64,000 nt of DNA from the NCBI GenBank assembly GCA_044892525.1, contig CM097885.1:2482001-2546000 (forward strand). The letters are read 5' to 3'. The DNA comes from Schmidtea polychroa (Eukaryota). A program made the translations under genes and the position numbers. Of this stretch, positions 2,085-34,029 are shown piece after piece (the stretch's first letter is position 1; each line of letters begins with the position of its first letter). The notes beneath the pieces are model-generated. The model was not told the origin of the DNA, ran no database searches, and saw only the letters and a list, made by a program, of their open reading frames with translations.

Positions 2085-3181
2085 ATGTCAAATCAAAGAA
2101 GAAAATATTTGAGAAAAACTCAAAACGATTTGGACAAACCCGAAAGATCCAGATGGTTTGGTTGATGTAGAAAAACTTGCAAAAAGAGTAAATAATTCAA
2201 AGAAAGAAACTTAAAAATGGTTATCTAATCAATTAGCCTACAGTCTAAATAAACCAATGTTAAAAAAATTCCCCACGAGATCTTATAAAACATTTGGTGT
2301 TAATGATTTATGGCAAATGGATTTAATGGAAATGATTCCAGTTTCAAAAAAATATAAAGGATACAAATATATTTTGACATGTATTGATGTATTTAGTAGA
2401 TACGCTCGTGCTATCCCAACAAAATCTAAATCAGCTAATGAAATGGCTGATGTATTAAAAACATTATTTGCTGACGGACAGCCTCGTAATTTGCAAACAG
2501 ATTTGGATAAAATTATAAATTAAATAATTTTAATTAATTTTAAATTTTGGTAAAGAATTTTATAATAGCAAAGTTAAAGAAATTATAAAAGGAATAAATC
2601 ATTACTCAGTATTTTCACAATATAAAGCAGCATATGTGGAAAGATTCAATCGTACTTTATGAGATCGTTTGAAAAAATATTTTGTATATCAAGGCGATAA
2701 AACGTGGATAAATGTTTTGTCAAAAATAATTTACAGTTACAATTTTTCACCTCATAGAGGATTAAATGGAATGATACCAATCGATATTTATTCAACAAAT
2801 AATATTGATACTTGGATATCACAAGATAAATCAAAAACAAAAAAGCCGAAATATAAAGTAGGAGACCATGTTAGAATAAGTAAAATCAGTGCTTCTCCAT
2901 TCATCAAGAATTTTGATAACAATTGGAGTGATGAAGTTTTTAAAATATCGAAAATAGATACTAATCAAATTCCGGTCATGTACTTTATTACAGATAATGA
3001 ATACGATCAAGTTAGTGGCAAATTCTACGAACCAGAACTACAAGTCATTCCATCACCCACAATCTTCAGAATTCAGGAGATTTTAAAAATTAAATCAGAC
3101 GATAAATATAAACAATACTATGTGAAATGGCATGGTTATAAACATCCTAGCTGGATATCTGAAAACCAATTGATTAAATAA
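2085..3181 (+). pseudogene. Polinton rve integrase with C-terminal chromodomain, disrupted
   Basis: Motifs DLWQMDL, YILTCIDVFSRY, LQTDL/GKEFY, AAYVERFNRTL, YKVGDHVRISK, NWSDEVF, GKFYEPEL and YYVKWHGY..SW. Contains in-frame stops and a 43-bp AT-rich insertion at 2507-2549. Confidence 0.92.
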
Positions 3182-3186
3182 ATATT

Positions 3187-3570
3187 ATGAAGGAAAACCA
3201 GTTTTATATGATTTTACCTAGTAATAGTTGTCCTCTTATTTATCCTGATAATAATGCTAGTAATTTTAAAGTTGAATTTCAAAACCCAATTTATTTGAAT
3301 GGGAAGTGGGAAGTAGCTTTGATTGATTTTACATTTGTGTATAATCATTTTCCGTATTACAGTAATTCATGGGTACAATACGAATTTAAAAAATCATGCG
3401 AAGAAACTAAATACTTGAAATTTGATAATCAAAACAAAATCTTAGAAATTTTAAATTCTACATATTTTCCAGATGTTGATGTGTTCTTGGAAAGATATGA
3501 AAACTTAGAGATAGTTTGTCCACATGTTCCATTAAAAATATCATTTCTTGACACCAAGCATGCATCTTAG
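3187..3570 (+). pseudogene. Polinton minor capsid (penton) protein, N-terminal part
   Basis: FYMILPSNS...YPDNNASNFKVEFQNPIYLNGKWEVALIDF matches the Polinton penton N-terminal signature. It starts 5 nt after the integrase stop and is truncated. Confidence 0.8.
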
Positions 3571-5376: not shown

Positions 5377-5925
5377 TGTTATAATCATTGTTAATACATT
5401 TGTCATAATCAATTATGGCTATTGACAACCACACCTTTCCAATTGTTGTCCAGGGTAGCCAAACTCCGACAATTGGGAATGTGTATGTTGTTACTTATAA
5501 ATTAAAACTTTTATTTATTATTTATTCATTTTTTTTCCTTTAATTATTTGGGGTTTAACTGATGACCTACCAATTAATAAATGAGACAACGCGAGTTCAA
5601 CATTATTTATTTTTCACCGTCAACAGTATCCAACAATGAAAAGTATGTATTTACGAATCCACTCCATAACCCTGGGACATCATCTTCATTTACTTTGCAT
5701 CTACATTATTTATTTAATAACATTGATTTTACATTTAAACAATAAATAATCTCCATTTGGACTGATTGTAGCCATACATCTGTAGTAAAAGTAGTAACAG
5801 ACTTTCGCAACCTCTAAATGAAGGATGTCAGTTCTAATATTTTCCACACTTGTTTTCAACCCTAAAAGGTATAAAATTAGAGGGAATGACTTTGAAAAAA
5901 ACAACTTTTATTTTTCATTGGGATC

Positions 5926-6501
5926 CTACTCAGTGGTGAGCTTTGAAAAAAACAACAAAGGGCTCGCAAAAATAAATTTAGGTGTTTTTCGTCTAGAAAA
6001 AAATGCTTTCCAATTGTTGTCCAGGGTAGCCAAACTCCGACAATATATAATTTTATTCATTGTTATTTCCAATTGTTTGGTTCCATGTCGATACCGTATT
6101 ATTGTTTCTTCCAGCTTATATATTACCCCTTCGATGGTTACAGTCTCTCCAACATCAATATTTGAAGTGCTTTTCTTTTTTTTCGCTTGTCGACATTCGG
6201 GCATTGGACCATACTCAAGTGTCGAGTGTATTCTTACCATTGAAACACTTGTCATTAATGCAACAAATTCTTGTGAAATTTCCAAAAACGATTCGGTGCT
6301 CCACTTCAATGGAATTATTGAATATTCCATCTCCGTCGCCACATTCTCGTCGATTGTCAAATCAATTTCTACGGATTCCATTACATCGTCAAACGGAATT
6401 TGTGCCACTTTCTTCGTTATTGTAGTCGATGTTGATGACATTTCTCGAAGTTTCTTATATTCATCCAACGAGTATCTCTTTGATGGTTGGTTTTTGGGCA
6501 T
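5926..6501 (-). CDS. Hypothetical 191-aa accessory ORF (mobile-element associated)
   Basis: ATG-initiated ORF starting 10 nt after the exonuclease stop; no recognisable domain. Confidence 0.5.
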   Translation of the reverse strand: MPKNQPSKRYSLDEYKKLREMSSTSTTITKKVAQIPFDDVMESVEIDLTIDENVATEMEYSIIPLKWSTESFLEISQEFVALMTSVSMVRIHSTLEYGPMPECRQAKKKKSTSNIDVGETVTIEGVIYKLEETIIRYRHGTKQLEITMNKIIYCRSLATLDNNWKAFFSRRKTPKFIFASPLLFFSKLTTE

Positions 6502-6511
6502 TGGTATATCA

Positions 6512-7015
6512 TCAATCCACTTTCTGATATACCTTGCGAATGCGTTTTACGTCCTCGAGAGCCGAATGCACACCAATTTGGGTCTTTTCTCCACATATTT
6601 CTTTTACTATGGTTTGTAATTTAAACCATTCCCCTCTTCTGGTTACTCCCATGTTCTGCAGTACTGGTGCTGCTGCCAAATCTCGAATGACATATAATTG
6701 TTGAATCCATATTCCCAAATATTGCAGTTCTGCATGTAAATCATGGCCCACTAGTATCTTGCAAACTGTCTGCTGTAAGATGTCCTTTGTTGCCACATAT
6801 TGATCGTATTGATTCCTGCTGGCTACTTCTGTGATATCGTGGATTCTTGAATTAAAATGCCGAATTTTTCACCTTGGAGTCAGGTATATATTCTTTATTA
6901 TTTTTCCATAATAATTCATTATTGCTATTGCCAAAGAGACCATTTTTCCTTGTTCTGACGTGCCATATTCTGCATCTACAAATAATATTCTATTGCGAAT
7001 TTCTTCTAAATCCAT
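6512..7015 (-). pseudogene. DEDDh 3'-5' exonuclease, REXO4/ISG20-like (167 codons, one internal stop)
   Basis: Manual translation from the ATG at 7015: MDLEEIRNRILFVDAEYG (ExoI DxE)...IMNYYGKII..YLTPR*KIRHFNSRIHDIT...KILVGHDLHAELQYLGI (ExoII-like)...IRDLA...FKLQTIVKEICGEKTQIGVHSALEDV...VY (ExoIII HxxxxD). TGA at 6869-6871. Confidence 0.85.
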
Positions 7016-7499
7016 TTCCTTTCTGAGAAACGACTTTATTTTTCAACATCTCTTTTGAAATTTTTTGTAATATTGGGTCACTTGGCTGCATCTGTGGAAC
7101 TTCGTTCGCTTCATTTTCGGTTCTGATTTCCACTACCATGGTTGTTTCTTCATTCGCTGCTCGTAACATTCTCCACATGAAGTCTCTCTGCAACTTCCAC
7201 GACGTGAATTTTCTAAGTTCCCACCATATTTTATTGTCATTCGTTAGTACCTCAACCGTACCCTTGGTTACATGCATTTGATATTCTTCTTTCCTTGACA
7301 TCTCAACTTCTTCTGCCAATCACAATTTCGACTTCCTCATTATCGTGAACATTTGAATCTTCATCTTTCTGTCATCGATTCTCAAATAATTTGGGATTAG
7401 AAGATTTTCATTGATCCGATATACTTGTTATCCGGCATGATTGTTTTTCATTTTGATATAACTGTCGTAGGTTGACCTTGCCCATTGTATTTGTTCCAT
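6990..7499 (-). pseudogene. Hypothetical ~169-aa accessory ORF with two in-frame stops
   Basis: The ATG at 7499 is in frame with ORF 6990-7319 (MEQIQWARSTY...*...*LAEEVEMSRK). Its end overlaps the exonuclease start by 26 nt. Confidence 0.45.
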
Positions 7500-7901
7500 T
7501 ATTTTTTGCTGAAATAGTTATAATTAAAATTTGAAATTAATTTACTTTTAAAACTAGGATTGAGATGGGTACCCAAAGGATACCGTCCCACCCACTAGTA
7601 ATATAAATAAATAATAATAATGATTTTGCTTTTCAAAATTAATTTAGTTTAATGAATTTAACCCGCCTTTAGGACCCTTATGAAAATTTCTTTAACCCTT
7701 TTTCTCTCCCCTTTATTACAGCGCTAACCAATCAGATTGATGCTTTCCTTTGCCATTGAAAAGTGCAGATTCACAAATAAAATAAAGTAAAATGTTGATT
7801 ATATCCATGATGAAATAAAATATTAATAATATCCATAAAATATTTGTACTATATTACTACTACTACTTTATCAATTTTGTATGCAAAGTATTTATGTCTT
7901 A

Positions 7902-9148
7902 CTAGACAAACGTTTCTTCATAAACAATCCAAAGTCTCGTAATCTCGGATCTATTCGTAGAAGATTTGAGTATTGATCGAAATTCAATTAGCACAATGAT
8001 GATGAGAATAATGAGAAAGATTGTTATAGTGAGAGTAGTTATTAATAATGTCACACACACAATTTCATTGTCAATTTTTAATGACGTTATGGATTCATTA
8101 TTAGTCATTGACTCATTGATGCTAGAAAAGATAATTCTGTTGGCAGAGTTTGGGGTTCGGTTTGACTGATTTGATTTATGTCGATTTCTATACTGCAAGT
8201 TGATAGATGGAATTTGCACAATTTTATTTTCCACTAAAGTTAATTGCCGTCGATTTGAAAATAGAGAATGTCTATAATATTTTATTTTGATGAACACTAA
8301 TTTTGACGTAGATATTGATGAACGTTGACGAAAAGTTAATATTTATTTTTTTCATTTAATATCGATTGAATTTTCCCATAATAATATAAAATAGCTTTTT
8401 GATTGGGCTCCACTTGTCGGGTAACATTCACTGTTTGATTGAAGATATGAAAGGTAACTCCGTTTGCTTCATTAACTAGTCATATCAAATGTTGACTAGA
8501 GTGGATTCTGACCCATTGACGATCAATCTCAGTTCCATTCTCATATAAAGATTTTTCATAATAATGAATCAGAATATTATAGTTATGATGCAATTTTAAA
8601 TTGGCATACTTTATAAAGGGTTTTCTGCTATTCAATGTATCTATCACATAATTTTGAAAAATTGTTTTTACTTATTGGGATTCCTGGGGTTCCCAATATA
8701 CGTCAATCCCATTTACTAGTGGTTCAATTGATATCCGATTATGAAATCTCTTTGTCCAAATATTAATGCGTATAAGATTTTGCATTTTTGTATTATTGTT
8801 TTTTGAATCTAGTTGCGTAATTAACCACGGGTATTCATAATTCATTGTTAATTGTCTAGCCACATAAATATTTTTATTGTTGTTTAACTTTATTGGGGGT
8901 TCAAACTATTAGATTACTTATCTCAACTATTTGAGTACATGTTGAGTATATATGAATTTTTCTAATAGGATAACTGTGGTAATTATATACAATGGGAATG
9001 CTCTCCCAGTGTTCACTGATATTATATTGATAATCATTACTGTTGTAATTAATAAAACTTTATTGTTGTAACTCAATGGAGCAGGGTTTTTTGTAAACCT
9101 TTGTTTAATTACTGGGTTTCCTGCATCTTTATATGGTTTTGATCTCAA
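7902..9148 (-). pseudogene. Decayed env-like / membrane protein region downstream of integrase
   Basis: A hydrophobic signal-like segment follows the RYPLRSKP integrase end (KVLLITTVMIINIISVNT). ORF fragments contain several NxS/T sequons. C-terminal TM-like stretch IVCVTLLITTLTITIFLIILIIIVLIEF followed by a short basic tail. Confidence 0.45.
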
Positions 9149-9149
9149 T

Positions 9150-11395
9150 GGATAACGTTATTCATCTTCTGCTATTATCTTTTTGCATCTATTTACATGA
9201 ACGATGATTGTCCCAGTTTTTTTATTGTTTTGTGAACGCAGTTTTAAATTAGTCTCTGGCGTATCGCATACTAGATATGGTCCTTTATACGGTCGTTGAC
9301 AATCCTTTTGTTGGTTCTGGTTTGTTTATATACACGAGATCTCCCATTTTAATGTCATACGCCCGTGCGTGTTTATCATAGCATTCTTTATACGCTCCTT
9401 GATGATGTCTCATTTTAAGTCCAGCTTGGATCCATACTGATTGTTGTCTTTCTTGCATAACTACTTAATAATCTGATACATCCATATATTGGGAAATAGG
9501 TGACTGAAATTCCAGATCAAATGGCATATTGTTTCGTCGCAGATACATGAGATAAAAGGGTGTTTCTCCAGTGCTTTCATTTACTGCATTTCGGTATGCA
9601 AATAAGCATGGTTTAATGAATAAATCCCAATCCTTTTGTTTTCTGTTTACTTAGGATGATATTATATTAATTTGCGTCCCATTAAATCTTTCCACTAGAC
9701 CATCTGTTTGTGGATGATATGGTGAGGTACTAAGTTTCAGTATACCAAATAAATCTGTAATTGATTTAAATAATTCACTCTGAAAATTTGTTCCTTGGTC
9801 TGTAAGTAATTTCTTTGGTGCTCCATATCGGAAAATAATATTCTCTACAAATATTTTCGCAACTGTTTCTGCTTTCTGATTTGGCATTACATAGGCTTCT
9901 GGCCATTTAGTAAGATAATCGCAAAAAACAATAATGTATTTGTTGCCATTTGTTGTTTCCGACAATGGACCAACGATGTCTATTCCTGTCATTTCCATTG
10001 GCGCCTTTGGCACTGGCATTGGCTTAAACGGAACTTTTATTTTCCGTCCCGTATTTCGTCTTGTTAGGCATACCTCATATGTATGACACCATTGTCTGAC
10101 ATCTTGTTCCATCGTTTTCCAATAATATTTCTGTTTCAATCTTGATAATGTTTTTCGGGTTGATAAATGCCCTCCTAATGCTCCATCGTGATACAACAAC
10201 AGTAATGCTTTTCGATGTTTATTTGGAACAATAATTAACAAATTTTCGTTTTGTACACATTTTAACAAACCATCATGAATATTGTATTTATGGTTCTCCT
10301 CGGCAATATGTTTTCAGTCACTCTCCTTTTTGATTGTGACAGCGTGTTGACTTAACTGATTTAATTCCTCGTCATTTTCCTGATCATCTTGTAATTTTTC
10401 TATATTATTTGCAGTTTTAATTGCCATAAATATTGTATTTTCGCAATTTTCCTCGTTTTGATCAACATTTTTTTCCACGAGTATTCTCGACATAGCATCC
10501 TGTACTTTCCTGTACTTGTTCTATCATGTTCTTGTAACGCAATTGACTACCTAATTAATTTACTGGCTGAATCTCTGTGCTTCATTAGCCATTGTAACGG
10601 TTTGTGATCCGTAAAGACAACAAATTTTCTGCCTACTAGGTATTGTCGAAAAGTAGTTATCTCATATACCAATGCTAGCGTTTCTTTTTTGATTGTCGAG
10701 TAATTCTTTTCATGAGGTTTCAATGATCTGCTGGCATAAGCAATTACATGATCATTCTCCACTTTTACTTGCTGTCCTAACACCGCGCATAATGCGAAAT
10801 TACTGGCATCTGTCATTAGTATAAACGGTTTTTTAAAGTTCAGACATCTTAATATTGGCTGTTTTATTAAGCTTTCTTTGAGTTTATCAAACGCTTCTTG
10901 CTGAGCTGTTGCCCATTTAAATTTTGCTTGCTTTTTCAACAACATGTTCAAAACTTTTCTGTAATAACTAGCTAGTCCCAGAAATTGTCGAACCTGATCT
11001 ACATCCTTGGGAATAGGATATTTCTTAATTTTCTCTACATTTTCTGGATTTGGTTGCAAACCTCGACGCAAAATAATATGGCCAGATAAACGACTTCAGA
11101 TTTCCCCCATTCACATTTTGAGGGTTTTATTTTTAAGTTTGCTTCTAACAATCGCTTGAATACTGTTTCCACATCCTGTAAATGTTCCTCAAAACTATTC
11201 CAAAATATTATGATATCGTCAATATACACTAATGCATGTGGTATATTGCGCAAAACAAAATTCATACCTCTTTGAATCCGAATGGTAACACATTAAACTC
11301 ATATAGACCCTTCCCATCTGAAAATGCAGTTTTCCTTCTATCTTCCTCTTTGACTTTAAATTGATTGTATCCTTTATTAAGATCTATTTGTAATA
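9150..11395 (-). pseudogene. Ty3/Gypsy pol (RT-RNaseH-integrase), frameshifted, 5'-truncated
   Basis: RT motifs DLNKGYNQ, YEFNVLPFG and VYIDDII. RNase H motifs TDAS, IAYASRSL and FTDHKPL. Integrase HHCC-like region, IDIVGPL, TDQGTNF, YHPQTDGLVERFN and a GPY motif. No gag or protease recognised. Confidence 0.95.
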
Positions 11396-11995: not shown

Positions 11996-12861
11996 ATGCA
12001 AATATTATCGACATCAGGATGCCGGCAAATAAAAGCAAAGTGGCGAGCCAATGAAATCGCGCCAAAATTTCCATCCGCAACGTCATCAATAAATAAAAAT
12101 ACAAATAAACCAATTACAATATGATAAACATCGGCAAATATTTGCTGCAAATAGAATTTCACCTCACGCCATCTCGAGCTCCACCGATCGGGTCGTTTGT
12201 TTAAATTCTTCCAATTCCAATTTCCATTGATGCAATTGCGCTCGTTTTCTCCCTAATTTCTCCTGGAAATCCTCGATCTGATTGATTGCGCCCGAGTGCC
12301 TAGGAAACCGAGCCGATAGGAATATCTATAACAAATCAATATGAAATCACAAATAATAAATAGATGAGTCATCGTGCCTGATTTGGTGGACCTAATTTCC
12401 CCTTAGCAACCAATGTTTACACTGATTTATTTATTTTACTATAAATTTTCATTTTCCAATTGACTTATTTTAATTATTTCATAAAATTTTTAATTCAAGA
12501 TTTAGATTAAATTTTAATTTATATTTTAATTTTTGGATCATTGAAATATCTTTTTTATTTTTAATATTTTATTTAACTTTCCAATAAAATTTTACTTTTT
12601 GTTATCAAATTATAATTTAAATAATTTTGTAAGATTTAAAACAAATGAGAAAAACACTGAAAATTAACATTAATAATATTTCGAATTTCGCTCAAAGCTA
12701 AAATACAATATTTATAAAATGTTTGTTTATCTACATCAAATGCAAATTATAAATATTGAAATTGTAAACGTCAGAGGAAATAATCAATATAATAAGTATG
12801 ATTTATGATTTATGTTGTAAAATGTTGAAATATTTTGATAATTTTGTTAATTTTAGATAAA

Positions 12862-14280
12862 ATGTTTGCAATCGTATGGGAAATGATGAAGAGAAATAAA
12901 TTTGAATTTGATAATGAAATCAGCAGTGAATTGATATGCAGAATTTGCAAATGTTTAATGATAAAGGCTTGCAATGCTCCTTGCGGTTGTCGCTTTTGTT
13001 CTGATTGCATTGAGCATTATTTGGATGGAAAAGATAAATTCTGTCCAGGAGCAGCAAAACATTGCGGAAAGAAAATGATAAATTTCAATAAAGATGTTTC
13101 TGAAGATCAAGCGATCAATTTAAGGATTTCAGAAGTGATAGTGAAATGCCCTATGCAAAATTGTCAATTCAAAGATGAATTAGAGGTGATGGAGAGCCAC
13201 ATGAGGGCATGCAACAAGCAGCCAATTAGATGCTCGTTCGAAAGGATTGGATGTGAAATAAATGAAGTAGAGAAGGACGAAATGAGAGTCCATCTCAATG
13301 AGAACAATGAAGGATCAGATCAGATTGATCAGATCAGCAATTTGTGCAATGAGATGCAGGCAATAAGAGGTGAGAAGGTGAAATTACGCGAGGAAATTAT
13401 CAATATCAATGTAAAATTTTATTTGTAATTAATTTAATTGATATTTGTGATTGTAGGTAAAATTGAGCAATATTGAAAGGAAAGATGCGGAGAACAGAGC
13501 AGAAATAGAAGAATTGAATGAGGAAATTTCGGCAGTGAAGAATGAGAATCGCTCATTGAGAATGGAGATGGAGACAAATATTGGATCAATCAATCAAGTT
13601 TGATTATTTATTTGATTTGTTATTGATTTGTTATTGACGCAAAGCAGATCAGTCAGCAAATTGAGGTGACTGAATCAAAATGTCAACAACAAATTGATGA
13701 GATGAAAGAGAAATGCGAGCAGCGGCTGCAACGGGAGAATGAAAAAGTAATTTATTGATTTATTGAAATGTTTGAATTTGAGATTCAGTTGCAGCCTGAA
13801 ATGGCGAAATGCGCCAATGAAATTCAGCAGGTTGAAACAAAATTAGGAAGTGAAAAATATATAAATTATGGATTTTTTGAATGGCAAATCGATAAATTTT
13901 CACAACAAAAGAGAAATGAATATATTTACAGCAAGGCATTTCATTCGGGGCCAATCGGTTACAAAATGTGCTTGTGGGTGTTAATTGGGCGTAATTGGGT
14001 TGAGGTTGGTTTCTGTGTGATGCGTGGGGCAAATGATGAGCAATTGGATTGGCCGTTCAATCAATCGGTGACAATCGATATGATCGATCCAGCAAATGGC
14101 AGCATTTATATGAGCAAGTCAGTGAAATATTCAGATCGCCCTCGTCATGCCGGATGGGGGAAACCGTCAGATGACAGAAATGATTCAATTCGCATTTATT
14201 ATGATGATGATCTTTCAATCTGTCAATTCGCAGCCAAAAGTGATAAATTGCTGCTCAGGTGCAGAATTGAAAAATTATGA
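12862..14280 (+). CDS. TNF receptor-associated factor (TRAF) family protein: RING, TRAF zinc finger, coiled coil, MATH; ~426 aa
   Basis: Exons 12862-13410, 13457-13597, 13648-13746 and 13789-14280 join in frame across GT-AG introns of 46, 50 and 42 bp. RING CRIC...PCGCRFCSDC...CP; MATH FEWQIDKFS, YSKAFHSGPIGYKMCL, MRGANDEQLDWPF. The start codon is uncertain. Confidence 0.92.
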
Positions 14281-19339: not shown

Positions 19340-22300
19340 TCAGCATTGCAATCTGGGCATTCGACGCAACTGCTCAGTGAATCCAATGCTTTCGCCCTCA
19401 GGAAGGCGAGGACCCCTCAGATGGAGGATCCGAGGGATCAGGTCATCCACCTGGTTGGCCTTGTACACCTTTCTACCTGTGGTTATTGCGGGCTCCGCTG
19501 ATCTGGAATATAGAATATATTGGGTTAAATATTCACAATCGATTAGCTAATTGCAACTTGAGCAATTTGACGGCGGACACGAAGAGATTCCTTGATTCTG
19601 TCGAGCGATCGATATCGAGATCAAAGTGAACGGTGTCGTCCACGTTCAGACATTTGACATCCGGTCCGAACCGGCCTGACCCAATAATGTCAAGTTCAAA
19701 CACGCCAGGAAGCCCACTGTCCCCGTCCTCCTCGTTCACCTGCCGCTCAATGCACACCTTCGATTTCTGAGCAATTTCCCATCATGATTTCCACAGATTC
19801 ACCCAGCAAATAAACTGCTTACCGTCACCGAGATAACGCGCCCAGTTTGCCGCAACAGGATCACATTGGTTGCCAACAGCCGCCAAGAGCCGTCCTGATC
19901 AACTTGTACAACATCAAATAGCACCCGGTCACTCGGGGACAATTTCGTTCTGAATGAAGTCAAGCTGGTCATCGAGTAGGGATATTGCTCATCGCTGTCA
20001 ATGTCATTGACCAATCCACAGTACTGGTTCTCTTTGTCAGTGTTCTCACTGATCAGTAGGGGCCGCATGATGACTCCCACGCGTTTCCTCACGATCGCTG
20101 TCTGGAATGAATGCGCATTATATATTATATCGGTTATCCGTGTTATCGGTTGGCCAACCAATAGGATTGGTCCCGCAACACACACACACACACACACACA
20201 ATATATATGAACTACAAACCTCATTGGACAACGGCTCGGTGAGAACCTTCAGGAACTGTTCAATGATGCGACGCGGCCGGCTGCCAGAGCTTGGCACCGC
20301 CAGGAATTCAATTGCCGAGCCAACCTTCAATTCCATCCCTAATTTGCTCTTCTTGATTGTGAACGGGCTGAATTTGTATAGCGCGTTGTGATCTGCCGTT
20401 TCCACGAATCCAAAGTACTCCTTGAGAATTACAATCCATCCTCGAAGGTTTCTCGTTGCCATGATAGGCAGGACTGTTGCCAAGGCCGGCTGTTGAGTGT
20501 GCGCATTGCCAACGGTGTGGACAGCAGCGATTTTATCGCCTGGGAGAGTACGCGATCTCAATTTTCGGCTGGCATCAGAATTCCTGTGAGAATCGGATGG
20601 AGTCCTGCTGCTGTTATTGGCTGATGATAAGGATGAAGGGGCAACGAGCTCAATGTTGAATGCGGCCGGAGGCAAATACTGAGAAGTGATCCGATCGAGA
20701 CAGCCAAATTTCACCTGTTCATAGGATAACCGATTATAATAGATAACGATTGCCATGGAAACAACGCGTTATTCATATCTCGCAATGACACTCGATGCCG
20801 GCCCTCATATTTGCTGACAGAGAGGGGTGTATACCAAGCAATCGGATCCCACAATTCATTACAAGGGTGATTCAAATGTGCTTATTGATCCCCCCTCCCC
20901 CCTCCATCCCTGGCGCGATAGACCTGCACAATAATATGAAGCGCCCAAATGCAGGAGTGAGCGTGAAGGAGTGAAACAATGAACCAGCAAGCGGGACAAA
21001 AGAATACCCAGGGCAGTTCACAAGCGGCCCCATCACCAATCGATATCAATAATCAACCCTTACCAAAACCGACCAATAGTAAATAAGAGAAAGTCTCACC
21101 TCATCACCAACTTTGGGCCTGCAATTGATGAGATCCTCGCTGGTAAATGCGACTGTCCTTGTTACCGATGAATTGGGAAACTGGCAGCAAATGATACCGA
21201 GATCATCTGGATTGTGCGCAGCAGTATTGACAATTCCCCGCAACTGACCGACTGGATACAATTTCAGGTGGGTCATTTTGTCACTGTCCTTCGATGGCAT
21301 GATGCGCAACGCAGTCGTTGTTAGTTTCTGGTGACCCCCGACGTTTCTCGACACTTGCAATGGAGTGTAGGAAACAACTGCAAACTTTGTCAGCTTCTCA
21401 TCACTCGGTAGCCATTCCTTGGCTTTGAACGCTACCAACATGTCCTCATCACCCTTGGCAGACAGATCCGGCTCAATCAATCCCGCAATATCGTCAAACA
21501 TTTTCACAACTCCGATATGCCGAGTTTCTTTGCGAGATGGAAACGAATCGAGACATAATTCGACTTGACAAGCCCGTTGCAGTTGATCACGGCGATCAAT
21601 GGCGATTTTGAATGAGACAATGTCACCCGGATGGAGACTATATTGATATCTTTTGTCTTTCTCTCCGAATGGAATTTGCATAACTTTACATTCATTGCCA
21701 CAAACGTAGGATATGTTGCCGGCTAATGGATCACCGTTATTTGCCCGCTTGCAATCAGGAGACCGTAGCAGTGTCCCATAAATAACGTTATCAAACACAT
21801 CGATAAATTGCACTGTACCCGGCTCTAGAAAACGCAAATTCACTGCTTCTTCTTTCCCATTACGTAAATGCTTGACATTAAATTCCAATTCAAGCCCAGG
21901 CTGCATTATTACACCTTCTGGTGACGCCGATAAATTGAAATAAATTTCCTTCACGATATCACTACGATCAATAAATCCAAATTTATCTTTCACTGAAGTT
22001 ACTATTCCTTGAACTTTAATCGGTTTATTATACTTCTTCCTGACTTTTATAGCACACGGCATTTCATTTCGCTCGCATTTTTCAAACAGTACTTCGTCTT
22101 TTGTTTTCAATTTCACATCTTCTAGTACATCTTCTTTAGAAAACGGTAAATAAAAACACTCCTCATTAAACTTGTATGATATGCTACCAGTTTCCGATTT
22201 TTTCGGCATTTTAACAATAACACCTTCTATAGTTTCAACGTGACTTTGGAACATTATATCCTTTGCCAGTGGTTTTCCTTTTGAAATTCCTCTAAGAAAG

Positions 22301-22506
22301 GTCACGTTATCTCCAACTTGAAGCTCTTCAAAAGGATTTTTTGTTGCTGTATAATGGAAAAATAATCGCTTTTCCTGATTTTCTTTGCTTTGACATTTTA
22401 TAAAGCCGTACTTCGGACATAGCTTTTCAATAGTGCCATATTCCGAAGCTGATTCGTATGAAATTATCGCATCATCGCCATTAAAATTTTCTGAAGTATT
22501 TTTCAT
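19340..22506 (-). CDS. CSDE1: Cold shock domain-containing protein E1 (UNR), ~850 aa
   Basis: Exons 22506-21100, 20714-20220, 20101-19823, 19766-19558 and 19502-19340 join in frame across GT-AG introns. Repeated CSD motifs (KYGFIKC..RLFFHY, KDKFGFI..EIYFN, KEYFGFVETADH), IAIDRRD..QRA, and a SUZ-C-like LRGPRLPEGESIGF near the C-terminus. Confidence 0.92.
20179..20200. repeat. (CA)11 microsatellite in CSDE1 intron 2
   Basis: Read directly from the sequence. Confidence 0.95.
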
Positions 22507-22935
22507 GAGACCGTTTTTGCAAATTCTTTTCAACTTAATTTACTGGCTAATCACGCAGCGAGGTCTAAAATATTATTCAATCAAAAAAAAATATCTCTAA
22601 TAAAGAAATTATTAAATGTATATTTTTCAATTGAAATAATCATATATTAAGACTAGCTAAACAAAACAAAGTCATGAGGTTGTTCATTAAATTTTCTATG
22701 TTTAGGAATTATTATTATTATTATTATCTTTATTATTAATATCATTATTGTTATTGTTTGACAAGATTATTTATTACTAATTTTATTTCAATTTATAGAC
22801 ATGCAAAATATAGACATATATTTATGTTTGAAAATTTATGATATTTGAAGATTTATTTCAATATCGTAAGTAATATAAATACCAATGAACTAAATTGAAT
22901 AATAAAAACATCAAAAACCACGTGAAGCTTAATTT

Positions 22936-23595: not shown

Positions 23596-24120
23596 TAGAA
23601 GTCTTGTCCCTTATTTTTGCCATCCTGTGAATGCTGCTGTGTGAGTTGCACGACTGAAAATGGCAATAAATAGATTTGAACCGCTAGGTTCCAAATTATC
23701 AGTCGACAACGCGCACCGCTGCACCATCCGGCAGTGATTATGTAGAAAATTTTTGCCATTTCAGTGGAAAATGACAGAAATTTTTATCAATGGTTATACA
23801 TTGAAGGTAGTTGAATCAAAATTTGTCGAAAAAATTTACAAAGCTGGCGGGGAAGTGCGGCCAACATGCAGTTACGTAATAAAAAACATAAAGTTGAATA
23901 ACTTTTTTGGATTTGAATATTTTCCAAAAACCCAAATGCTATAACAAGGTTTACGAAATTCCCAATTCAAAAATATCTGGATGGTAAAAATTGAACAAGG
24001 ATTAAGCTTTTTTTTCGCCGGTCGCAGCTGACATCAGAAATGAGTTTTTCGTTTCTAACTTTGTCAAAACATAACATAGTTGAATAATTTGTACATTATT
24101 CTTGTATAAAATTTAATTTC

Positions 24121-24829
24121 CAATCAGGAGACCGTAGCAGCGTCCCATAAATAACGTTATCAAACACATCGATAAATTGCACTGTACCCGGCTCTAGGAA
24201 ACGGAAATTCACTGCTTCTTCTTTCCCATTACGTAAATGCTTGACATTAAATTCCAATTCAACGCCAGGCTGCATTATTGCACCTTCTGGTGACGCCGAT
24301 AAATTGAAATAAATTTCCTTCACGATATCATTACGATCAATAAATCCAAATTTATCCATATCACAGAAGTTACTATTCTTTGAACTGCTTTAATTGGTTT
24401 ATTATACTTCTTCCTGACTTTTATAGCACACGGCATTTCATTTCGCTCGCATTTTTCAAACAGTACTTCGTCTTTTGTTTTCAATTTCACATCTTCTAGT
24501 ACATCTTCTTTAGAAAACGGTAAATAAAAACACTCCCCGTTAAACTTGTATGATATGCTACCAGTTTTCGATTTTTTCGGCATTTTAACAATAACACCTT
24601 CTATAGTTTCAACGTGACTTTGAACATATATCCTTTGCCAGCGGTTTTCCTTTTGAAATTCCTCTAAGAAAGGTCACGTTATCTCCAACTTGAAGTTCTT
24701 CAAAAGGATTTTTTGTTGCTGTATAATGGAAAAATAATCGCTTTTCCTGATTTTCTTTGCTTAGACATTTTTTAAAGCCGTACTTCGGACATAGCTTTTC
24801 AATAGTGCCATATTCCGAAGCTGATTCGT
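24121..24829 (-). pseudogene. Partial duplicate of CSDE1 exon 1 (source 21752-22457), frameshifted
   Basis: Near-identical translation split over three ORFs (24609-24839, 24320-24583, 24096-24359); truncated at both ends. Confidence 0.95.
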
Positions 24830-26230: not shown

Positions 26231-26519
26231 TGTTAGACGCAATTATATTCAAGTCTTCTTCAAGCATTTATTTTTATAACAACTTCAAAATTGAGTCGTT
26301 TACAAGAGTATTTAAACACCGAGGCGTGATAATTATTAATATTAATGTAATTACCGGTCATACATTTAATTGATTTAATTTAATATAATTTAATATAATA
26401 TGATATAATTTAATATAGAATTTAAATATAAAAATTTAACAGAAATAATTATTTCTACTAACTGATCTCACTTCTACCATTTAACCATAATAATTTTATA
26501 TAGAGATTTACTAATTCCT
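26231..26519 (-). repeat. 3' LTR (inner terminus deleted)
   Basis: Matches 30884-31149 apart from a few substitutions and two ~10-bp indels. Confidence 0.92.
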
Positions 26520-29476
26520 CGTTATTTTTCTCCCGTTTTCGTCTGTTAATAAGTAACTTCTTTCATGATTTCGTTTTATTACTGTGTATGGTCCTTCATA
26601 TCTCTCCTGATCTTTGTTTCTCATTTCTTGTTTCACCAATACTTTGTCCCCCACTTCTAAGTTCCTAGTTGTGCCAATTTCTTTCGCTTGCTGTCTTTTA
26701 GCCTCTAATTTCCGCATGATTTCATTACTACTATGCTATTGCGATCTATTAATCTTTCTTCCAAATATAATTTCTGCTGGACTCACTCCAGTAATTTTCT
26801 AGTTGTCGCATTTAAAACTTATTCTATGTCAGGTATTATTTCTGCCCAGCTTTTTTTAACTCCTTCTCTGAGTGACGCGTTAATATAGTCTCTTATAGTA
26901 CGAAATTGTCTTTAAATTACACCATCAGTATTATGATGATACGGACTCAAAAATATCAACTCAATTCCTGCTGCCTTTGCTATTTCTTTAATGCTATTTG
27001 CTTCGAAATTCTTTCCACAATCAACATGTAGTTCCTTAGGGGCTCCAAATTTCAATATCCAATTATTTAACAAAACTGCCTTTATTGTATTTTCATCTTG
27101 CTTTCTAATATGAGTTAGAGATATGTATTTACTGTAATGATCGATTATTGCACAAATATATTTTTCTCCTCTGAAGGTTTCTCTTAATGGACCGCAAATA
27201 TCCATGTATATTTTCTCCATAGGTTCTGAAGCTTGAATTACTTGGGTTTTTTCTTTTGACTTTGCAGTTAAAACTTTGTTTTTCTGACATGCTTCACATA
27301 TTGAAATAGTCTCTTTTATTTCATTTAGCAAATCTTCCATATCAAAATTGTTCCTAATATATTTCATAACTTTTTCTACTCCTGCGTGGCATAATAATAA
27401 ATGTGTTTCCTTAATCATTTCTCGTCTTTTTGTTTCTGGTATCCATATTTTGTTTTGATTGGTATAGATAATATTTCCTTTTAATATATATTTATTATTT
27501 TTCCTTTCATTTATTTGATCTTTTATATCTTGTATTTCTGCATTATCTCTTTGCCATTCATTTCCATTATTTTCGGTCATCAATGTTAACAATCTAGTTT
27601 TTAATCGCCCTGATTTGGGGTTATCATGGTCCATCAAACATTGTACACATTTGCCGCATGTATTTCTAGACAGCATATCTGCATTCGTATGCGCCGTACC
27701 TTTTCTGAACTCCATTTTTATGTCTAAACTGCTCAAGTAATTTATCCACGTTTGGAACTGTGCTGTTATCGGCTTCTTTGTCGTTAACATAAAAGTTATT
27801 GCTTTATGATCAGTGCGCAAAAAAACCGTTTACCGTATAAATAATGGTTGAAATGGCGACAGAAATAATATATTGCCAAAAGCTCTTTTCGTGTTATACA
27901 ATATCCTCTTTCATGGCTACTCATTGCATGGGATCCATATGCAATAACGTGTTCATGCCCCATTTCATCTCTTTGTGATAATACAGCTCCAATTGTATCA
28001 AAGCTTGCGTCTGTATCTAATATGAATTCTTTCTTGAGATCTGGAAATACGAGAATTGGCGCTGTAGTCAACGCCATTTTCATTTCTTCGAAAGCTTCCT
28101 CACATTCCTCAGTCCAGATTATTTTTTCACTATTGCTTCCACATATGCTTTCTAGCGCTCTTGATTTTGTTGCATATTCCTTAATAAATCTCCGATAATA
28201 GTTACATATACCTAAAAGCTTCTCATATTCTTTATACACTTAGGCCTCTGAAATGATTTAATAGCCTCAATTTTACTTTGATCTGTCCGAATCCCCTGAC
28301 TGTTAATAATGTGCCCTAAAAACTTTACTTCGCTCTTTAATAACTGACATTTTTCGGGGTTGATTCTCAATTTAGCTTCCCGTATTTTCTCTAGAACTTT
28401 TCCAAACACATTGTAATGTTCTTCAATTGTTCTTGTAAAAATTAAAATATCGTCTAAATACACCATAACTCCTTCTTTCCATAGATCTTTCAATATTTTT
28501 GTCATTAATTCTTGGAATGTACCCGGTGCCGCTGCAATGCCAAAAGGCATTCTATTAAAACAGAATTGCCCTTCTTTAGTAGAAAATGCTGTCTTTTCTT
28601 GCGATTCTATGTCCAATTTCACCTGATAATAAGCGTTCACAAGGTCTATAGAACTAAAGTACTTAGATCCATGTAATGTATCTAGAATTTCTTCTACATT
28701 CGGCATAGGAAAAGCTTGTCTTTCAGTAATCTTATTAAGCTGTCTAAAATCTAAACAAAGTCTAATATCTTTTTTGTCTTTTTTCCACAGCATACTAACG
28801 GCGTATTCAAAGGTGAATTACATCTTCTTATGATATCATTATTTTCTAAATTTTTTATAGCAGCATTTATTTTCTCCTCTAAATTGATGGGTTGTCTTCT
28901 GGGTTTTATCATAATTGGCCCTTCTTCTGTGATGATTTTATGTGCAATTAAATCAGTACATCCGATATCCCAGTTATTAGCCATAAAAACACTTTTATTG
29001 TTTTTAACAATCTCTAACAGTCTTTTATTTTCGTTTAATCTTAGAATTTCTATTGCTTTTTGACATCTCTCGTCATCTGTGATCTTTTCCCCAAATCTAG
29101 CTTCTATTTCACACACAAATTCATTATATCCTTCTTAATTTTGCTTGATGTAGTTTAATTCAATTCCAAACTCTTTCTGCAATTCCACTCCGCCTATTAT
29201 ATCTGGAACAATATTTTTAACTATTATAAATGTTATTTTTCTTTCCATATTACCAATTCTAACATCAATATATATTTTTCCGATTGTCTCTAATTTACTA
29301 TCATTTGCACATCTTAACATCTCATCTGTTTTTATGATTTTCACATTCACTAATTTGTCCACAACTGCTTCTGCCATTACATTTACTCTTGCTCCTGTAT
29401 CTAGTAAGCATTCCATTCTATAGCCCTGGATTTCAAGAGTTGTACTCGGTCTACCTTGCATTTTGTCATAACTCAA
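26511..29476 (-). pseudogene. Gypsy pol: protease, RT, RNase H, integrase (multiple frameshifts and stops)
   Basis: LLDTGA; CLDFRQLN, MPFGI, VYLDDIL; DTDAS, RKELLAI, TDHKA; HHCC, MDICGPL, VDCGKNF, SPYHHNTDG; YEGPY. Confidence 0.95.
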
Positions 29477-29843
29477 TTTCGGTCGTTTCCATTCATCTTT
29501 AGTGAAAATATTTTGCTCCTCTGATTATTAATCCACCCAATTTCCTTTCTCTCTAATTTATCTTCTGCCATTTTTATAAATTTATAAACTTTTTCATTTA
29601 CTATTTTATTATTATATTCTGCTTCTTTAATTTCATTAGACTCTTCTTGATTCTTAGGATTATTATTATTATTTATTAAAGATCGATCAGCATTAAAATA
29701 ACTATAACATTTAAAATTATTTAAAGGAAACTTTTTAAAATTACAAATTTTATTACATAAAGGTTCTACATTATTATATATATAAGGATTATTTACATTA
29801 TTAAAATTATTATGACCAATATTTACATCAATATCAAAATTAC

Positions 29844-30884
29844 CTAGTATATTGCTCCGATCATTGCCTCCCGTGTCAAAGCATGTACTTTTGGGTGCTG
29901 AATATCCTCATATTTGTCTTCTGCATCATCTGAATACTCAAGTGGCATCGTCTCATCATTAGCTTCAATTGCTGCAATTGTTCTTCCTGGATTGTTGATC
30001 TTTTGTTGATAGCTTGTGGTTCGATGGGCATAATAATTATTATTTCTCATGTTTGAATTAGTTTGAAACTTCCTTCTTTCAAAATTTGTATAGCAGTCAA
30101 CGTAAGTGTGTCCACGTAAGTGACATCTCTGGCATTGAATCGTTGAACATTCTCGCCGTACGTGGCCTTCAACTCCGCATGCAAAACACGTCATTTTCTT
30201 TTTCATTTGGCATTCTCGACTAACATGACCAGTTTTCTTGCATGTCCAGCATTCCAATTGTCGGTTACTGACGTTTCGCTGCTTGAAATTATTATTTCCG
30301 TTTACTATTCCTCTTTGAGCAACATCTCTGTAGCTTCTGTAGTTTTGAACAACCGGTGAAGTCTTCACAACATTAATATGGCCCATAATTTTGTTTACCT
30401 TTTCTAATTTCTTTATTGTCGCTTTTATTTCTTCTGACGTTTTCAAATCTTTCATCTCGATCTCTTTTTTAACTTCTCGATCTCTTACACAGTTTGTAAG
30501 CAGGCATTTTTCTATTTCTTCTTCATCCCATTTGTGCGCTATTAATTTCTTTGTCATCTTTTTAATTTTCTCTATAAATGTTTCGGCTGAATCTGATCCT
30601 TGTTCATAACTCAAAGCTTCTTTTAGATCATCCATTAATGATGTCGGTTTCGAAAACGCATATCGAAGTTTCTCTTCCATAGTTTTTCCTTCGGCTGCTT
30701 CATAATCTTCCATTAGCGATCTGTCAAGTAATGTTGTAGTTAATATTACTTGCATCCTAATTGTTGTTTTTGTCGCGCCAAAAAACCTTTGACAATCCTT
30801 GATAAAATTTTCAAAATCATCGCCTTTGTGAAATTTCTCAGGTAATAGTCTGCTTATCAATAAATCCGTGGTCGTGGTCGCCAT
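29844..30884 (-). CDS. Gypsy Gag with three CCHC zinc knuckles, 346 aa
   Basis: CWTCKKTGHVSREC, CFACGVEGHVRREC and CQRCHLRGHTYVDC in an intact ORF. Confidence 0.93.
   Translation of the reverse strand: MATTTTDLLISRLLPEKFHKGDDFENFIKDCQRFFGATKTTIRMQVILTTTLLDRSLMEDYEAAEGKTMEEKLRYAFSKPTSLMDDLKEALSYEQGSDSAETFIEKIKKMTKKLIAHKWDEEEIEKCLLTNCVRDREVKKEIEMKDLKTSEEIKATIKKLEKVNKIMGHINVVKTSPVVQNYRSYRDVAQRGIVNGNNNFKQRNVSNRQLECWTCKKTGHVSRECQMKKKMTCFACGVEGHVRRECSTIQCQRCHLRGHTYVDCYTNFERRKFQTNSNMRNNNYYAHRTTSYQQKINNPGRTIAAIEANDETMPLEYSDDAEDKYEDIQHPKVHALTREAMIGAIY
30866..30883 (-). promoter_or_regulatory. Primer binding site (tRNA-Arg-like)
   Basis: TGGCGACCACG immediately follows the 5' LTR CA end and is complementary to a ...CGUGGUCG-CCA tRNA 3' end. 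The Arg assignment is from memory of metazoan tRNAs. Confidence 0.75.
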
Positions 30885-31153
30885 GTTAGACGCAAGTCTT
30901 CTTCAAGCATTTTTTTTATAACAACTTCAAAACTGTGCCGTTTACTAGAGTATTTAAACACCGAGGCGTGATAATTATTAATATTAATGTAATTACTGGT
31001 CATACATTTAATTGATTTAATTTAATATAATTTAATATAATAATATAGAATTTAAATATAAAAATTTAACAGAAATAATTATTTCTACTAACTGATCTCA
31101 CTTCTACCATTTAACCATAATAATTTTATATAGAGATTTACTAACTCCTTACA
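30884..31153 (-). repeat. 5' LTR (270 bp)
   Basis: TGTAA...TAACA on the minus strand; direct repeat of 26231-26519. Confidence 0.93.
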
Positions 31154-32603: not shown

Positions 32604-34029
32604 TTAATCATCTCGTTTTATGCAATTTATAACATTTTACTATTTCTAGTGATCGATCTTTTACCCACTAAGTCTGCTGATCTACCCAATTTACTCATTA
32701 AAGCATTTTGTACCATACATTGTATTCTTGAATCGATCGTCGACTAAGTTATCCAATTCCATTGTCCTGTGTCATCAGTACATGATATACTACGTTATTC
32801 CGTATCTTCAAATAGAGTCATTTTCCTACTGCATAATTATCTTATTTATGGTTTCTTTCGTCATTAGTAGGTCCAACGAAAGCCACGTTGTATCCTTTCA
32901 TGACGTTTCCGACGCAACCCAAGATACAATGGTTTACTTTAACATCCGACACCCGTTAAGCGATCAACATTTGTACCTTCTCATATGTGTGAATGCTCGC
33001 GAAAAGTGAGCGTCCTCCGGTACATAATTGTCATCTTGCATTCAAGTGGGTTCGCACACTTCCGATAGAAGGTTTATGTACGACTTCAATCAGGCCCACT
33101 TATGTCTTTTACTCTGCTAATTCGTAAACGTGAATTTTAAGCAAACATGATGTTGTGTTATACGCTGTAATATTATTTACAAAATCTTTCAATTCACTCA
33201 GACCAACAACAAATCACAACGGGAAAAAAAAAACACAAATAAAAAAAAACACCGGCTACTTGATTAGTTAATGTGAGTGGAATCCGACTCATATACGTTA
33301 TCGAGAGTTTGGTTGAAGTGACCAATGATCAGGGAATTCTTGCAGACTCCTCGTTTGGCCCTTTCGTACTGTCCTGGTCTTTTGTGCGTCTTTGCCTGGC
33401 CGGTAGTAATGACTAGTTGGGAAGTTGGGGCGGCTGAAGCTCCATAGCTCATAACTGTATTGTATTTATATATCAGTGACATCATCTGTACTGTATATCT
33501 ACTTCTTACCTGGTTTCCTTTTTCCTTCAAGGCTCTTGATATTTTTAGTTCATTTTCATTTTAGTTCATTTTCACTTATGCTTTCTATCTTTGCTTTCAA
33601 TTCTTGTAATTTTTTGTCATTCACACTTTGATTTGCATTCATCTTTCCATTTTTTTTAAGTCTTTCTTAAAAACAACAGATAAAATTTTTGGCGCGAGTA
33701 AAAATGAATGTGACAGCAATAAATTTTAAAAATTCAATTTAACATTTTCATTATAACACATATTTTTTTAAATTTATTTTTGCCTATTATTGTCACAATG
33801 ATTTTTATTCATAATAAAAAAGTTTATAAATTTTTGATGCAAATAATAAATATTTATAATAAATTAGTGTTTTTACAGTAGAAATGTTATAAATGTGTGT
33901 GAAATAAATATTTTGTTTTAACAACTCAATTGATGGAAACGCAAATTAGATTGATTTGAGTTTATATTTTTATAATTTTTCATATTTTAGTTTAAATGGA
34001 ATTTTTGAATGTAATTAACGAATTTTTCT

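Follow-up and report, generated by a model that had tools for sequence, protein, structure and literature searches.

The sequence at 7015-6512 on the minus strand of the window (the entire 64,000-nucleotide stretch of Schmidtea polychroa DNA that was analyzed) is most probably what remains of the catalytic domain in a decayed copy of ORF3, an accessory gene carried by an LTR retroelement. Profile, motif and fold comparisons make it likely that the ORF3 exonuclease is a DEDDh enzyme of the ISG20/ISG20L2/REXO4 type with an RNase H-like fold. With similar confidence, the carrier was assigned to the Ty3/Gypsy-type, env-bearing LTR retroelements that resemble Burro. ORF3 would be a separate, 489-aa accessory gene of this ~16.8-kb element.

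The ORF3 copy and element fragment in the window

Translation of 7015-6512 (−) gave 167 residues interrupted by one in-frame TGA at codon 49. The preliminary description had assigned this reading to the ISG20/REXO4 class of DEDDh domains, and phmmer against the PDB agreed, retrieving ISG20L2 (7yw5) at E = 4.6e-8 and ISG20 (1wlj) at E = 1.3e-4 with the window copy as the query. The motifs reported there were likewise all recovered (FVDAEYG, VGHDLHAEL and HSALED), and the Glu in place of Asp in ExoII turned out to be a family trait. The proposed gene model, an intronless 167-codon protein starting at the ATG at 7015, had to be replaced: the 167 codons are the middle domain of the 489-aa ORF3, the ATG at 7015 is its internal Met166 and the true start in the window is at 7499.

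When the intact 489-aa copy P0002 was used as a tblastn query, it mapped onto the window in three frames. Residues 1-159, a predicted cupin-like barrel with a linker, correspond to 7032..7499 (−) in frame −2, with two in-frame stops and 74% identity to P0002. Residues 160-332, the DEDDh exonuclease (here D-E-E-H-D), correspond to 6515..7033 (−) in frame −3, shifted relative to both neighbors and carrying the single TGA. Residues 327-489 correspond to 6055..6543 (−) in frame −1, with 71% identity; they comprise an acidic tail, for which disorder is predicted, together with a basic cluster and a beta motif at the end. The total of three stops and two frameshifts identifies the window ORF3 copy as a pseudogene; the function that had been proposed for it does not apply to this copy, which is dead and lies in a truncated fragment without LTRs. 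The codon occupied by TGA encodes Gly in translated intact copies, and the exonuclease domain is free of stops in 144 of the 150 genomic matches that were scored; the TGA is therefore a mutation. Programmed readthrough or recoding of the TGA was ruled out on the same observations.

The surrounding retroelement fragment extends over 5415..11388 (−), from a 5′ truncation inside the reverse transcriptase (RT) to ~200 bp past ORF3, with no LTRs in the window. It retains the C-terminal part of RT at 11035..11265 (−) (Pfam RVT_1, E = 5.1e-11, profile positions 137-202 of 205), the RNase H domain of pol at 10547..11071 (−) (RT_RNaseH, E = 1.7e-34) and the integrase at 9651..10268 (−), the last with both its H2C2 zinc finger (Integrase_H2C2, E = 1.6e-18) and its catalytic core (rve, E = 6.4e-12). 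By Pfam, these pol remnants stand in the same domain order as in full-length copies. They are followed at 7902..9650 (−) by the remnant of a pol tail (~600 aa in intact copies) that has a long hydrophobic stretch near its end and is homologous to the pol-frame tail of two other loci, L041 and L031; the terminus of the ORF at 7902-8297 resembles that of the intact polyprotein. Searches with the pol tail after the integrase gave no Pfam match and no usable ESM Atlas match.

Comparison by blastn with 29 genomic copies and their upstream flanks confined the homology of the window to 11388→6040 and 5614→5415; upstream of the point where the window stops matching, the other copies keep matching one another for ~10 kb more. 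The ~430 bp between the two homologous blocks, at 5615..6042 (−), occur in the window copy only, as an insertion or rearrangement, and the segments flanking them abut in other copies. In other copies, the ORF3 stop codon is immediately followed by the segment found here at 5415..5614 (−), which is 88-91% identical to most A-type loci and ~75% to two others; 38 bp of it are repeated at 6007-6044. The window fragment has no paired LTRs, primer-binding site (PBS), polypurine tract (PPT) or target-site duplication, and a search for direct repeats flanking it found none.

Carrier element, copy number and selection

Full-length elements measure ~16.8 kb from LTR to LTR. LTR pairs were read from joined adjacent stretches of single genomic copies, with no consensus made, and lie ~16 kb apart; the paired LTRs are 99.78% identical over 900 bp, 99.88% over 848 bp and 99.82% over the 555 bp in range. 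The copy with 900-bp LTRs (copy A) has the termini TGTTGGGG...CCCAACA, that is, TG..CA ends, together with a PBS-like site (TGG...) and a purine tract that precedes the 3′ LTR; ATTT on either side of the element is its 4-bp target duplication. Pfam domains in the long frames follow the order Retrotrans_gag, zf-CCHC, Monjiviricetes fusion glycoprotein, RVP, RVT_1, RNase H and integrase (H2C2 and rve), and the PR-RT-RNase H-IN order is present in both L031 and L041. The fusion glycoprotein (PF24664, E = 7e-88) occupies residues 1347-1723 of a 2144-aa frame, between zf-CCHC (385-400) and RVP (1825-1921). The exonuclease had been placed downstream of a pol/env region; the recognizable env in fact lies upstream, in frame between gag and protease, and what follows the integrase in the giant frame is the tail of ~600 aa.

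Two of the four full-length copies combine an uninterrupted 3437-aa polyprotein frame with an open ORF3; in the other two, the polyprotein has one or several breaks and ORF3 is open. Eight flanked copies were examined, and ORF3 comes after the pol frame in all four that have long flanks. Between ORF3 and the 3′ LTR lie ~2.7 kb of AT-rich sequence without ORFs. The layout that we propose would run from the 5′ LTR and PBS through the giant frame (gag, CCHC knuckle, rhabdovirus-type fusion glycoprotein, PR, RT, RNase H, IN and tail) to ORF3, the spacer, the PPT and the 3′ LTR. The earlier suggestion that the exonuclease is cargo of a Gypsy-type retroelement is thereby upheld, as the gene is multi-copy and LTR-bounded and adjoins pol in every copy examined. 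ORF3 is intact also in pol-deleted derivatives, although its intactness in pol-broken and pol-deleted copies may be only a reflection of their youth.

Read contigs from four runs presumed to be RNA were compared with locus L004, and no joints were seen. A loose end of 20 A, ~105 nt past the ORF3 stop, was seen in one contig of one run, and short runs of A in two more contigs; these signals are too weak to define a transcript end. A loose end of 9 nt immediately ahead of the ORF3 ATG was considered as a spliced leader and rejected, as the nine nucleotides are the sequence of another subfamily.

The abundance of the gene was assessed by searching the genome (781 Mb, ~30% GC, four large chromosomes) with the 167-aa peptide. 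Of the 1043 first-look candidates obtained, 150 were scored; every one of them matched at E ≤ 1.7e-90 with 83-100% identity, and ~109 lie in open frames of at least 484 aa. Read from its MEQ start, ORF3 is 483-490 aa long in 17 of the 29 loci outside the window. The search advised in the preliminary description, for multiple copies near pol and for stop-free copies, thus returned both: strong matches in 150 of 150 scored cases and, as given above, domains without stops in nearly all of them.

The exonuclease domain of ORF3 is under strong purifying selection. Between two subfamilies represented by L004 and L007, the Nei-Gojobori estimates for this domain are dN 0.013 and dS 0.239, giving a dN/dS of 0.06, with 0.15 for the N-terminal domain and 0.18 for the C-terminal tail. 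Other subfamily pairs gave similar dN/dS, with dS between subfamilies ranging from 0.24 to 0.8. The comparison of dN/dS across copies that had been recommended therefore reports purifying selection throughout (0.06-0.18). In some pairs, dS differs greatly between the parts of ORF3, and this unevenness along the gene suggests recombination between ORF3 subfamilies.

ORF3 also recurs beyond this family. Two further ORF3 lineages occur in the same genome, one of them with 52% identity in the exonuclease domain; where their context is readable, they lie immediately after the end of a pol tail. On the metagenome contig L058, a pol frame with PR, RT, RH and IN shares 53% identity over 981 aa with its planarian counterpart; downstream come an unassigned 491-aa ORF and then a 443-aa ORF3 relative (34% identity, RNase_T 45.6 bits, Asp in ExoII). 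The combination of N-terminal domain and exonuclease is found in a few dozen database cluster representatives. A search for longer homologues, including Pfam analysis of 12 longer relatives that proved free of RT and integrase, found no ORF3 fused to pol, and no ORF3 relatives were found in IMG/VR viral contigs.

These data bear on whether ORF3 is a neutral passenger, a cellular gene captured once that hitch-hikes in a successful element. The copies are mostly very young, so intactness alone says little, and ORF3 is open even where the polyprotein is broken, as a passenger would allow. Against it stand the dN/dS values between subfamilies at dS of 0.24-0.8, the retention of ORF3 across element lineages that share only 53% identity in pol and 34-52% in the exonuclease, and the presence of several ORF3 lineages in one genome. 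We consider a passenger very improbable and treat ORF3 as a gene maintained by selection.

Architecture, active site and origin of the ORF3 protein

The ORF3 protein would be organized as a cupin or double-stranded beta-helix barrel without a conserved metal triad, followed by the exonuclease and an acidic disordered tail, whose end would combine a basic cluster with a small, conserved beta motif. In the AlphaFold2 model, for which 29 aligned sequences were the input, pLDDT exceeds 90 at residues 1-130 and 170-340 and falls below 50 at residues 359-457, a stretch with predicted disorder.

A profile of 29 family members matched ISG20L2 at 1e-24, ISG20 at 1e-14, SDN1 at 6.5e-11 and Pan2 at ~1e-4. 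The Pfam family RNase_T (PF00929) was matched by 18 of the 29 members at E ≤ 1e-3; the window copy scored 14.8 bits against a gathering cut-off of 24, and the intact P0002 had no Pfam match at E ≤ 0.01. The modeled exonuclease superposes on ISG20 with Z 18.5 and an rmsd of 2.0 Å over 159 of 168 residues, followed by Pan2 (Z 15.3), the DNA-polymerase entry 9qpc (Z 14.6) and SDN1 (Z 14.2). Foldseek gave a TM score of 0.84 to both 7yw5 and 1wlj. SARS-CoV-2 ExoN (Z 10.1) and RNase D (Z 9.7) were distant matches. The HMM and structure searches that had been called for to check the DEDDh assignment hence rank ISG20 and ISG20L2 best by profile as well as by fold.

The N-terminal domain, detected by HMM search in 52 retrieved proteins, was modeled on its own with a pLDDT of 86. 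Its structural neighbors are ALKBH6 (Z 9.8), OsALKBH1 (Z 9.7), small cupins (Z 9.4) and pirin (Z 9.2), with a background of 7-8; in a viral library, the neighbors are cupins, 2OG oxygenases and plant-virus replicase polyproteins. Replicases of the closterovirus and flexivirus types carry AlkB domains. In two alignments, H76 is the only conserved His of the domain and no acidic residue stands two positions on. An AlkB/2OG-Fe(II) oxygenase iron site was ruled out by the absence of the HxD...H triad. We read the modeled domain as a putative non-catalytic cupin-like barrel, at Z scores little above background. A search of the ESM Atlas with the N-terminal domain gave no usable match.

The catalytic pentad of P0002 consists of D179, E181, E261, H315 and D320. 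ExoI has the D-x-E signature (FIDAE in P0002, FVDAE in the window copy), and ExoIII has H-x4-D in HSALED (H315 and D320), with His rather than Tyr; the Asp of HSALED occupies the position that was changed in the D327A crystal of ISG20L2. In ExoII, the place of the Asp of ISG20L2 and ISG20 is taken by Glu261 (HDLHAEL), which keeps the carboxylate. This Asp-to-Glu change at the third carboxylate was absent from the solved relatives returned by the searches.

To place the change, the pentad was compared across 150 exonuclease domains extracted from retrieved homologues. Sixty of them form a retroelement-type clade that contains 46 of the 47 N-domain-bearing proteins and is united by a weakly supported branch (SH-aLRT 35). 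Within it, 27 domains have D-E-E-H-D and 14 have D-E-D-H-D, five are partial (three with Glu, two with Asp) and 14 are degenerate. Among the 90 other domains, D-E-E-H-D does not occur; 72 have D-E-D-H-D, 17 are partial with Asp and one is degenerate. ExoII Glu is thus present in 30 of 60 proteins of the clade versus 0 of 90 others. The alignment indicates that the Asp-to-Glu change is a trait of this weakly supported retroelement-type clade, at a position that toggles between Asp and Glu. From the loss of catalytic residues in 14 of the 60 members, catalysis appears to be dispensable in some lineages. Truncated fragments also fall inside the clade of N-domain-bearing exonucleases.

A second reading concerns the origin of the gene: it could be a processed pseudogene or a dispersed family of host REXO4/REXO1 that lies beside Gypsy DNA by chance. 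As expected of such a derivative, ORF3 lacks introns and shares its superfamily with the host REXO4-like gene. The host gene, however, contains an intron and has Asp in ExoII, and its identity to ORF3 is no more than 25%, against 47% to a fungal homologue. A cleaner tree was built from 72 near-complete domains, from which five long-branch rows and all N-terminally truncated rows had been dropped. In this tree, the host gene belongs to a 25-row clade with an SH-aLRT of 100, and ORF3 lies outside it. The low identity and this placement exclude a recent processed pseudogene, which settles the phylogenetic comparison with host REXO4 that had been proposed. The extra N-terminal domain is absent from all 25 rows of the host clade and the position of ORF3 is constant inside LTR-bounded units, both at odds with a host-derived copy. 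We give this origin a negligible chance and regard ORF3 as retroelement-encoded, in distinction to the single-copy host gene and the clade to which that gene belongs.

Proposed function and relation to known systems

Among the cellular relatives of ORF3, ISG20 degrades viral RNA, and REXO4 and ISG20L2 trim rRNA; SDN1 degrades small RNAs and Pan2 shortens poly(A) tails. Its ISG20-type fold and essentially complete active site make ORF3 a candidate for catalytic activity, and we infer that the protein would degrade RNA 3′→5′ as an active, metal-dependent exonuclease and that the element would produce it to its own advantage. Two kinds of target may be envisaged. By analogy with SDN1 and the arenavirus NP exonuclease, ORF3 might act on host silencing or sensing RNA (piRNA, siRNA or dsRNA), a possibility that we hold tentatively. 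Equally tentatively, it might trim the 3′ ends of the element's own RNA, primer or reverse-transcription intermediates. Our guess is that counter-defense and a role in replication or RNA processing are about equally probable, with the rest falling to other functions. Planarian transposons are under PIWI/piRNA control in stem cells (PMC8532177), which makes a counter-defense role plausible, not demonstrated.

More speculatively, and in our estimate rather unlikely as a full account, ORF3 could be a suppressor of RNA-based defense in which the cupin-like domain aims the nuclease at the 3′ ends of piRNA, siRNA or dsRNA, or else an ExoN-like helper. As a suppressor, it would allow an endogenous retrovirus with env to continue its spread in an animal rich in PIWI. 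As an ExoN-like helper, its 3′-end editing during reverse transcription would permit unusually long retroelement genomes, as the nidovirus ExoN does. If either were true, the D-to-E change, common to ORF3 and the unrelated DEDDy ORF3s of rotifers, would be a convergent adaptation of retroelement exonucleases.

The same change can be taken in the opposite sense, since it could weaken catalysis. ORF3 might be a pseudo-enzyme in which the exonuclease fold has been retained as a non-cutting module that binds RNA or serves as a scaffold, as in Maelstrom or EXD1. Such a module would accord with the Glu for Asp in ExoII of all planarian copies seen, with the degenerate catalytic positions of 14 of 60 clade members and with the rotifer DEDDy ORF3s, which share DEDD→DEED and whose activity is described as unproven (PMC5408684). 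It sits poorly with the conservation of the other four catalytic residues and the restriction of the fifth to Asp or Glu in 46 of the 60, with the exonuclease domain having the lowest dN/dS in ORF3 (0.06) and with the active-site-bearing model superposing on ISG20 at 2.0 Å. We judge a pseudo-enzyme improbable and favor an active exonuclease. The clade-wide Asp-to-Glu change offers a simple biochemical question, and strong purifying selection makes ORF3 a concrete, clonable candidate for a counter-defense factor or a replication helper.

Few LTR retrotransposons have accessory genes, and those that occur indicate which constraints a retroelement meets inside its host. ORF3 belongs to a very abundant, very young, env-bearing element family of an animal whose stem cells rely on the PIWI/piRNA pathway to control transposons (PMC8532177). 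An exonuclease accessory ORF3 in LTR retroelements is already a known kind of gene; its ISG20/REXO4-type DEDDh version appears new. Full-text literature searches found no report of an ISG20/REXO4-type exonuclease ORF in LTR elements, though Repbase entries, Grohme et al. 2018 and paper supplements may list the ORF.

Among cellular DEDDh enzymes, ORF3 shares its fold and its ExoI and ExoIII motifs with ISG20, ISG20L2, REXO4/yeast Rex4 and Arabidopsis SDN1 (1wlj, 7yw5 and 5z9x). It differs from them in its low identity (23-29%), the Glu for Asp in ExoII and the added cupin-like domain and acidic tail.

The carrier recalls Burro/GYPSM1, the giant Gypsy-like elements of planarians, >30 kb long, with an in-frame env and accessory ORFs (Arkhipova & Yushenova 2019, PMC6431247). 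Shared features are the Gypsy-type domain order, a huge polyprotein, an in-frame mononegavirus-like fusion glycoprotein between gag and protease, high copy number and accessory ORFs (PMC6431247). At ~16.8 kb versus >30 kb, the present element is set apart from Burro as far as the published description goes, and the planarian section of that paper mentions no exonuclease in Burro (PMC6431247). The cargo domains by which Burro/GYPSM1 elements are further recognized (BIR, BCL2, MATH or ankyrin) are absent from the polyprotein of the present element (Pfam, E ≤ 0.01).

Mobile or replicating elements with an accessory DEDDh exonuclease are known elsewhere. KolobokD DNA transposons resemble the planarian element in encoding one as an accessory protein, but they are cut-and-paste elements, and their nuclease is TREX/ERI1/exuperantia-like and proposed to act on DNA intermediates (PMC9587614). 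Nidovirus nsp14 and arenavirus NP contain DEDDh ExoN domains for proofreading of large genomes or for suppression of innate sensing, and in these, as in the planarian element, a DEDDh domain was acquired by a replicating RNA-based element (PMC7968707). The structural match between ORF3 and viral ExoN is distant, the Z of 10.1 to SARS-CoV-2 ExoN being that of a predicted model.

The closest parallel is the DEDDy exonuclease ORF3 of the bdelloid rotifer Juno/Vesta LTR retrotransposons and of Athena/Terminon elements (Rodriguez et al. 2017, PMC5408684). As in rotifers, the planarian gene is a separate third ORF after pol that encodes a DnaQ-like 3′-5′ exonuclease, is family-specific and shows DEDD→DEED (PMC5408684). 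A rotifer-type DEDDy ORF3 was ruled out by the His in ExoIII, by ISG20 and ISG20L2 being the best matches and by RNase D reaching only Z 9.7. According to the description of the rotifer proteins, these are RNase D/WRN-like DEDDy enzymes, whereas planarian ORF3 belongs to the DEDDh, ISG20/REXO4 branch, with His in ExoIII; it also has a cupin-like N-terminal domain and an env-bearing carrier, in contrast to rotifer ORF3 as described. Planarian ORF3 is under clear purifying selection, whereas the rotifer paper reports no significant departure from neutrality (PMC5408684). ORF3 would thus represent a second, independently acquired class of 3′-5′ exonuclease in LTR elements, the first being the DEDDy type of rotifers.

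ORF3 lineages and their C-terminus

Beyond the first lineage, the genome contains at least two further lineages of ORF3, the accessory gene behind pol, as judged from eight loci (L049-L056) together with the genome-search table. One of these is represented by 474-aa ORFs, mostly decayed and with ~37-42% overall identity to the first lineage, and another by 486-aa frames that are open. The catalytic D-E-E-H-D pattern is kept in both, where it was read. In alignment A1 of ORF3 homologues, the last ~60 residues of the protein (445-489 in the intact copy P0002) comprise a basic cluster and, after it, a short beta motif, G-x-x-[FY]...I-x-Y. Even distant homologues conserve these two features at the extreme C-terminus, although the preceding tail is disordered and variable. 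The basic cluster looks like a nuclear localisation signal.

Pol tail, pol-deleted copies and tandem arrays

The integrase is followed in the same frame by a pol tail of ~600 aa with a long hydrophobic stretch near its end (L041:2316-4175, in an ORF3 locus), for which no match was found in Pfam or Atlas. Its counterpart in the window is a remnant at 7902-9650 (-). Two copies, L039 and L040, were examined from the group in which the ORF3 matches are most uniform, and ~3.3 kb encoding protease, RT, RNase H and integrase is absent from both of them; in one, gag-env is fused in frame to the pol tail. Because both have lost the protease-to-integrase region and retained ORF3, they look like non-autonomous derivatives. 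ORF3 also occurs in tandem arrays with a repeat unit made up of the end of pol, ORF3 and the ORF3 trailer, as at L041 and L042 (G000:C2:45.474-45.494 Mb) and on C4 near 68.58 Mb, where three genome-search matches are spaced 3612 bp apart. In one array the unit is 2.6 kb long and occurs three times, each with an open 489-aa ORF3; a second array carries a diverged ORF3 lineage with stops.

Other features of the window

Two open frames at 12829-14280 (+), with a TRAF-type zinc finger and a TRAF/MATH domain, are probably a host TRAF-like gene adjoining the element fragment; MATH_TRAF is also reported among the cargo of the giant planarian Burro elements (PMC6431247). The window has a single GC-rich part (46% GC), and in it lies a 496-aa frame at 21046-22536 (-) with cold-shock domains (CSD and CSDE1-type); ~700 bp at 21749-22457 recurs at 24118-24829 with 97-98% identity. 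Other mobile DNA includes a separate small LTR retrotransposon at 26268-31149 (-), with LTRs of ~250 bp (94-99% identical) and encoding RT, integrase and a gag that has CCHC knuckles. A fragment of yet another element, at 2257-3570 (+), contains an integrase core, matches a chromodomain weakly, and is followed by a 127-aa ORF with no Pfam match. A 51-bp tandem repeat at 34624-35191 (9.7 copies, 153-bp higher order) falls within a 494-aa open frame (34015-35499, +). The last 28 kb (35901-63996) is occupied by ~1017 copies of a 28-bp satellite with 91% matches, whose two strands are strongly asymmetric in composition (GC skew ~-0.62).

Related elements and the fusion glycoprotein

The 11.5-kb metagenome contig L058 is a related element from another organism. 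After the integrase, its pol frame goes on to encode a second domain resembling an aspartyl protease, as well as ankyrin repeats. An unassigned 491-aa ORF comes next, and then the exonuclease ORF, in which the ExoII residue is Asp.

In full-length copy A, the polyprotein (L031:555-6986) includes a fusion glycoprotein of the Monjiviricetes type (rhabdovirus-like; PF24664, E=7e-88), placed in frame after the gag/CCHC region and before the protease. An in-frame fusion glycoprotein between gag and protease is the layout already published for giant Burro elements (PMC6431247). The ORF3 element, which has this glycoprotein layout in common with Burro, is half Burro's size.
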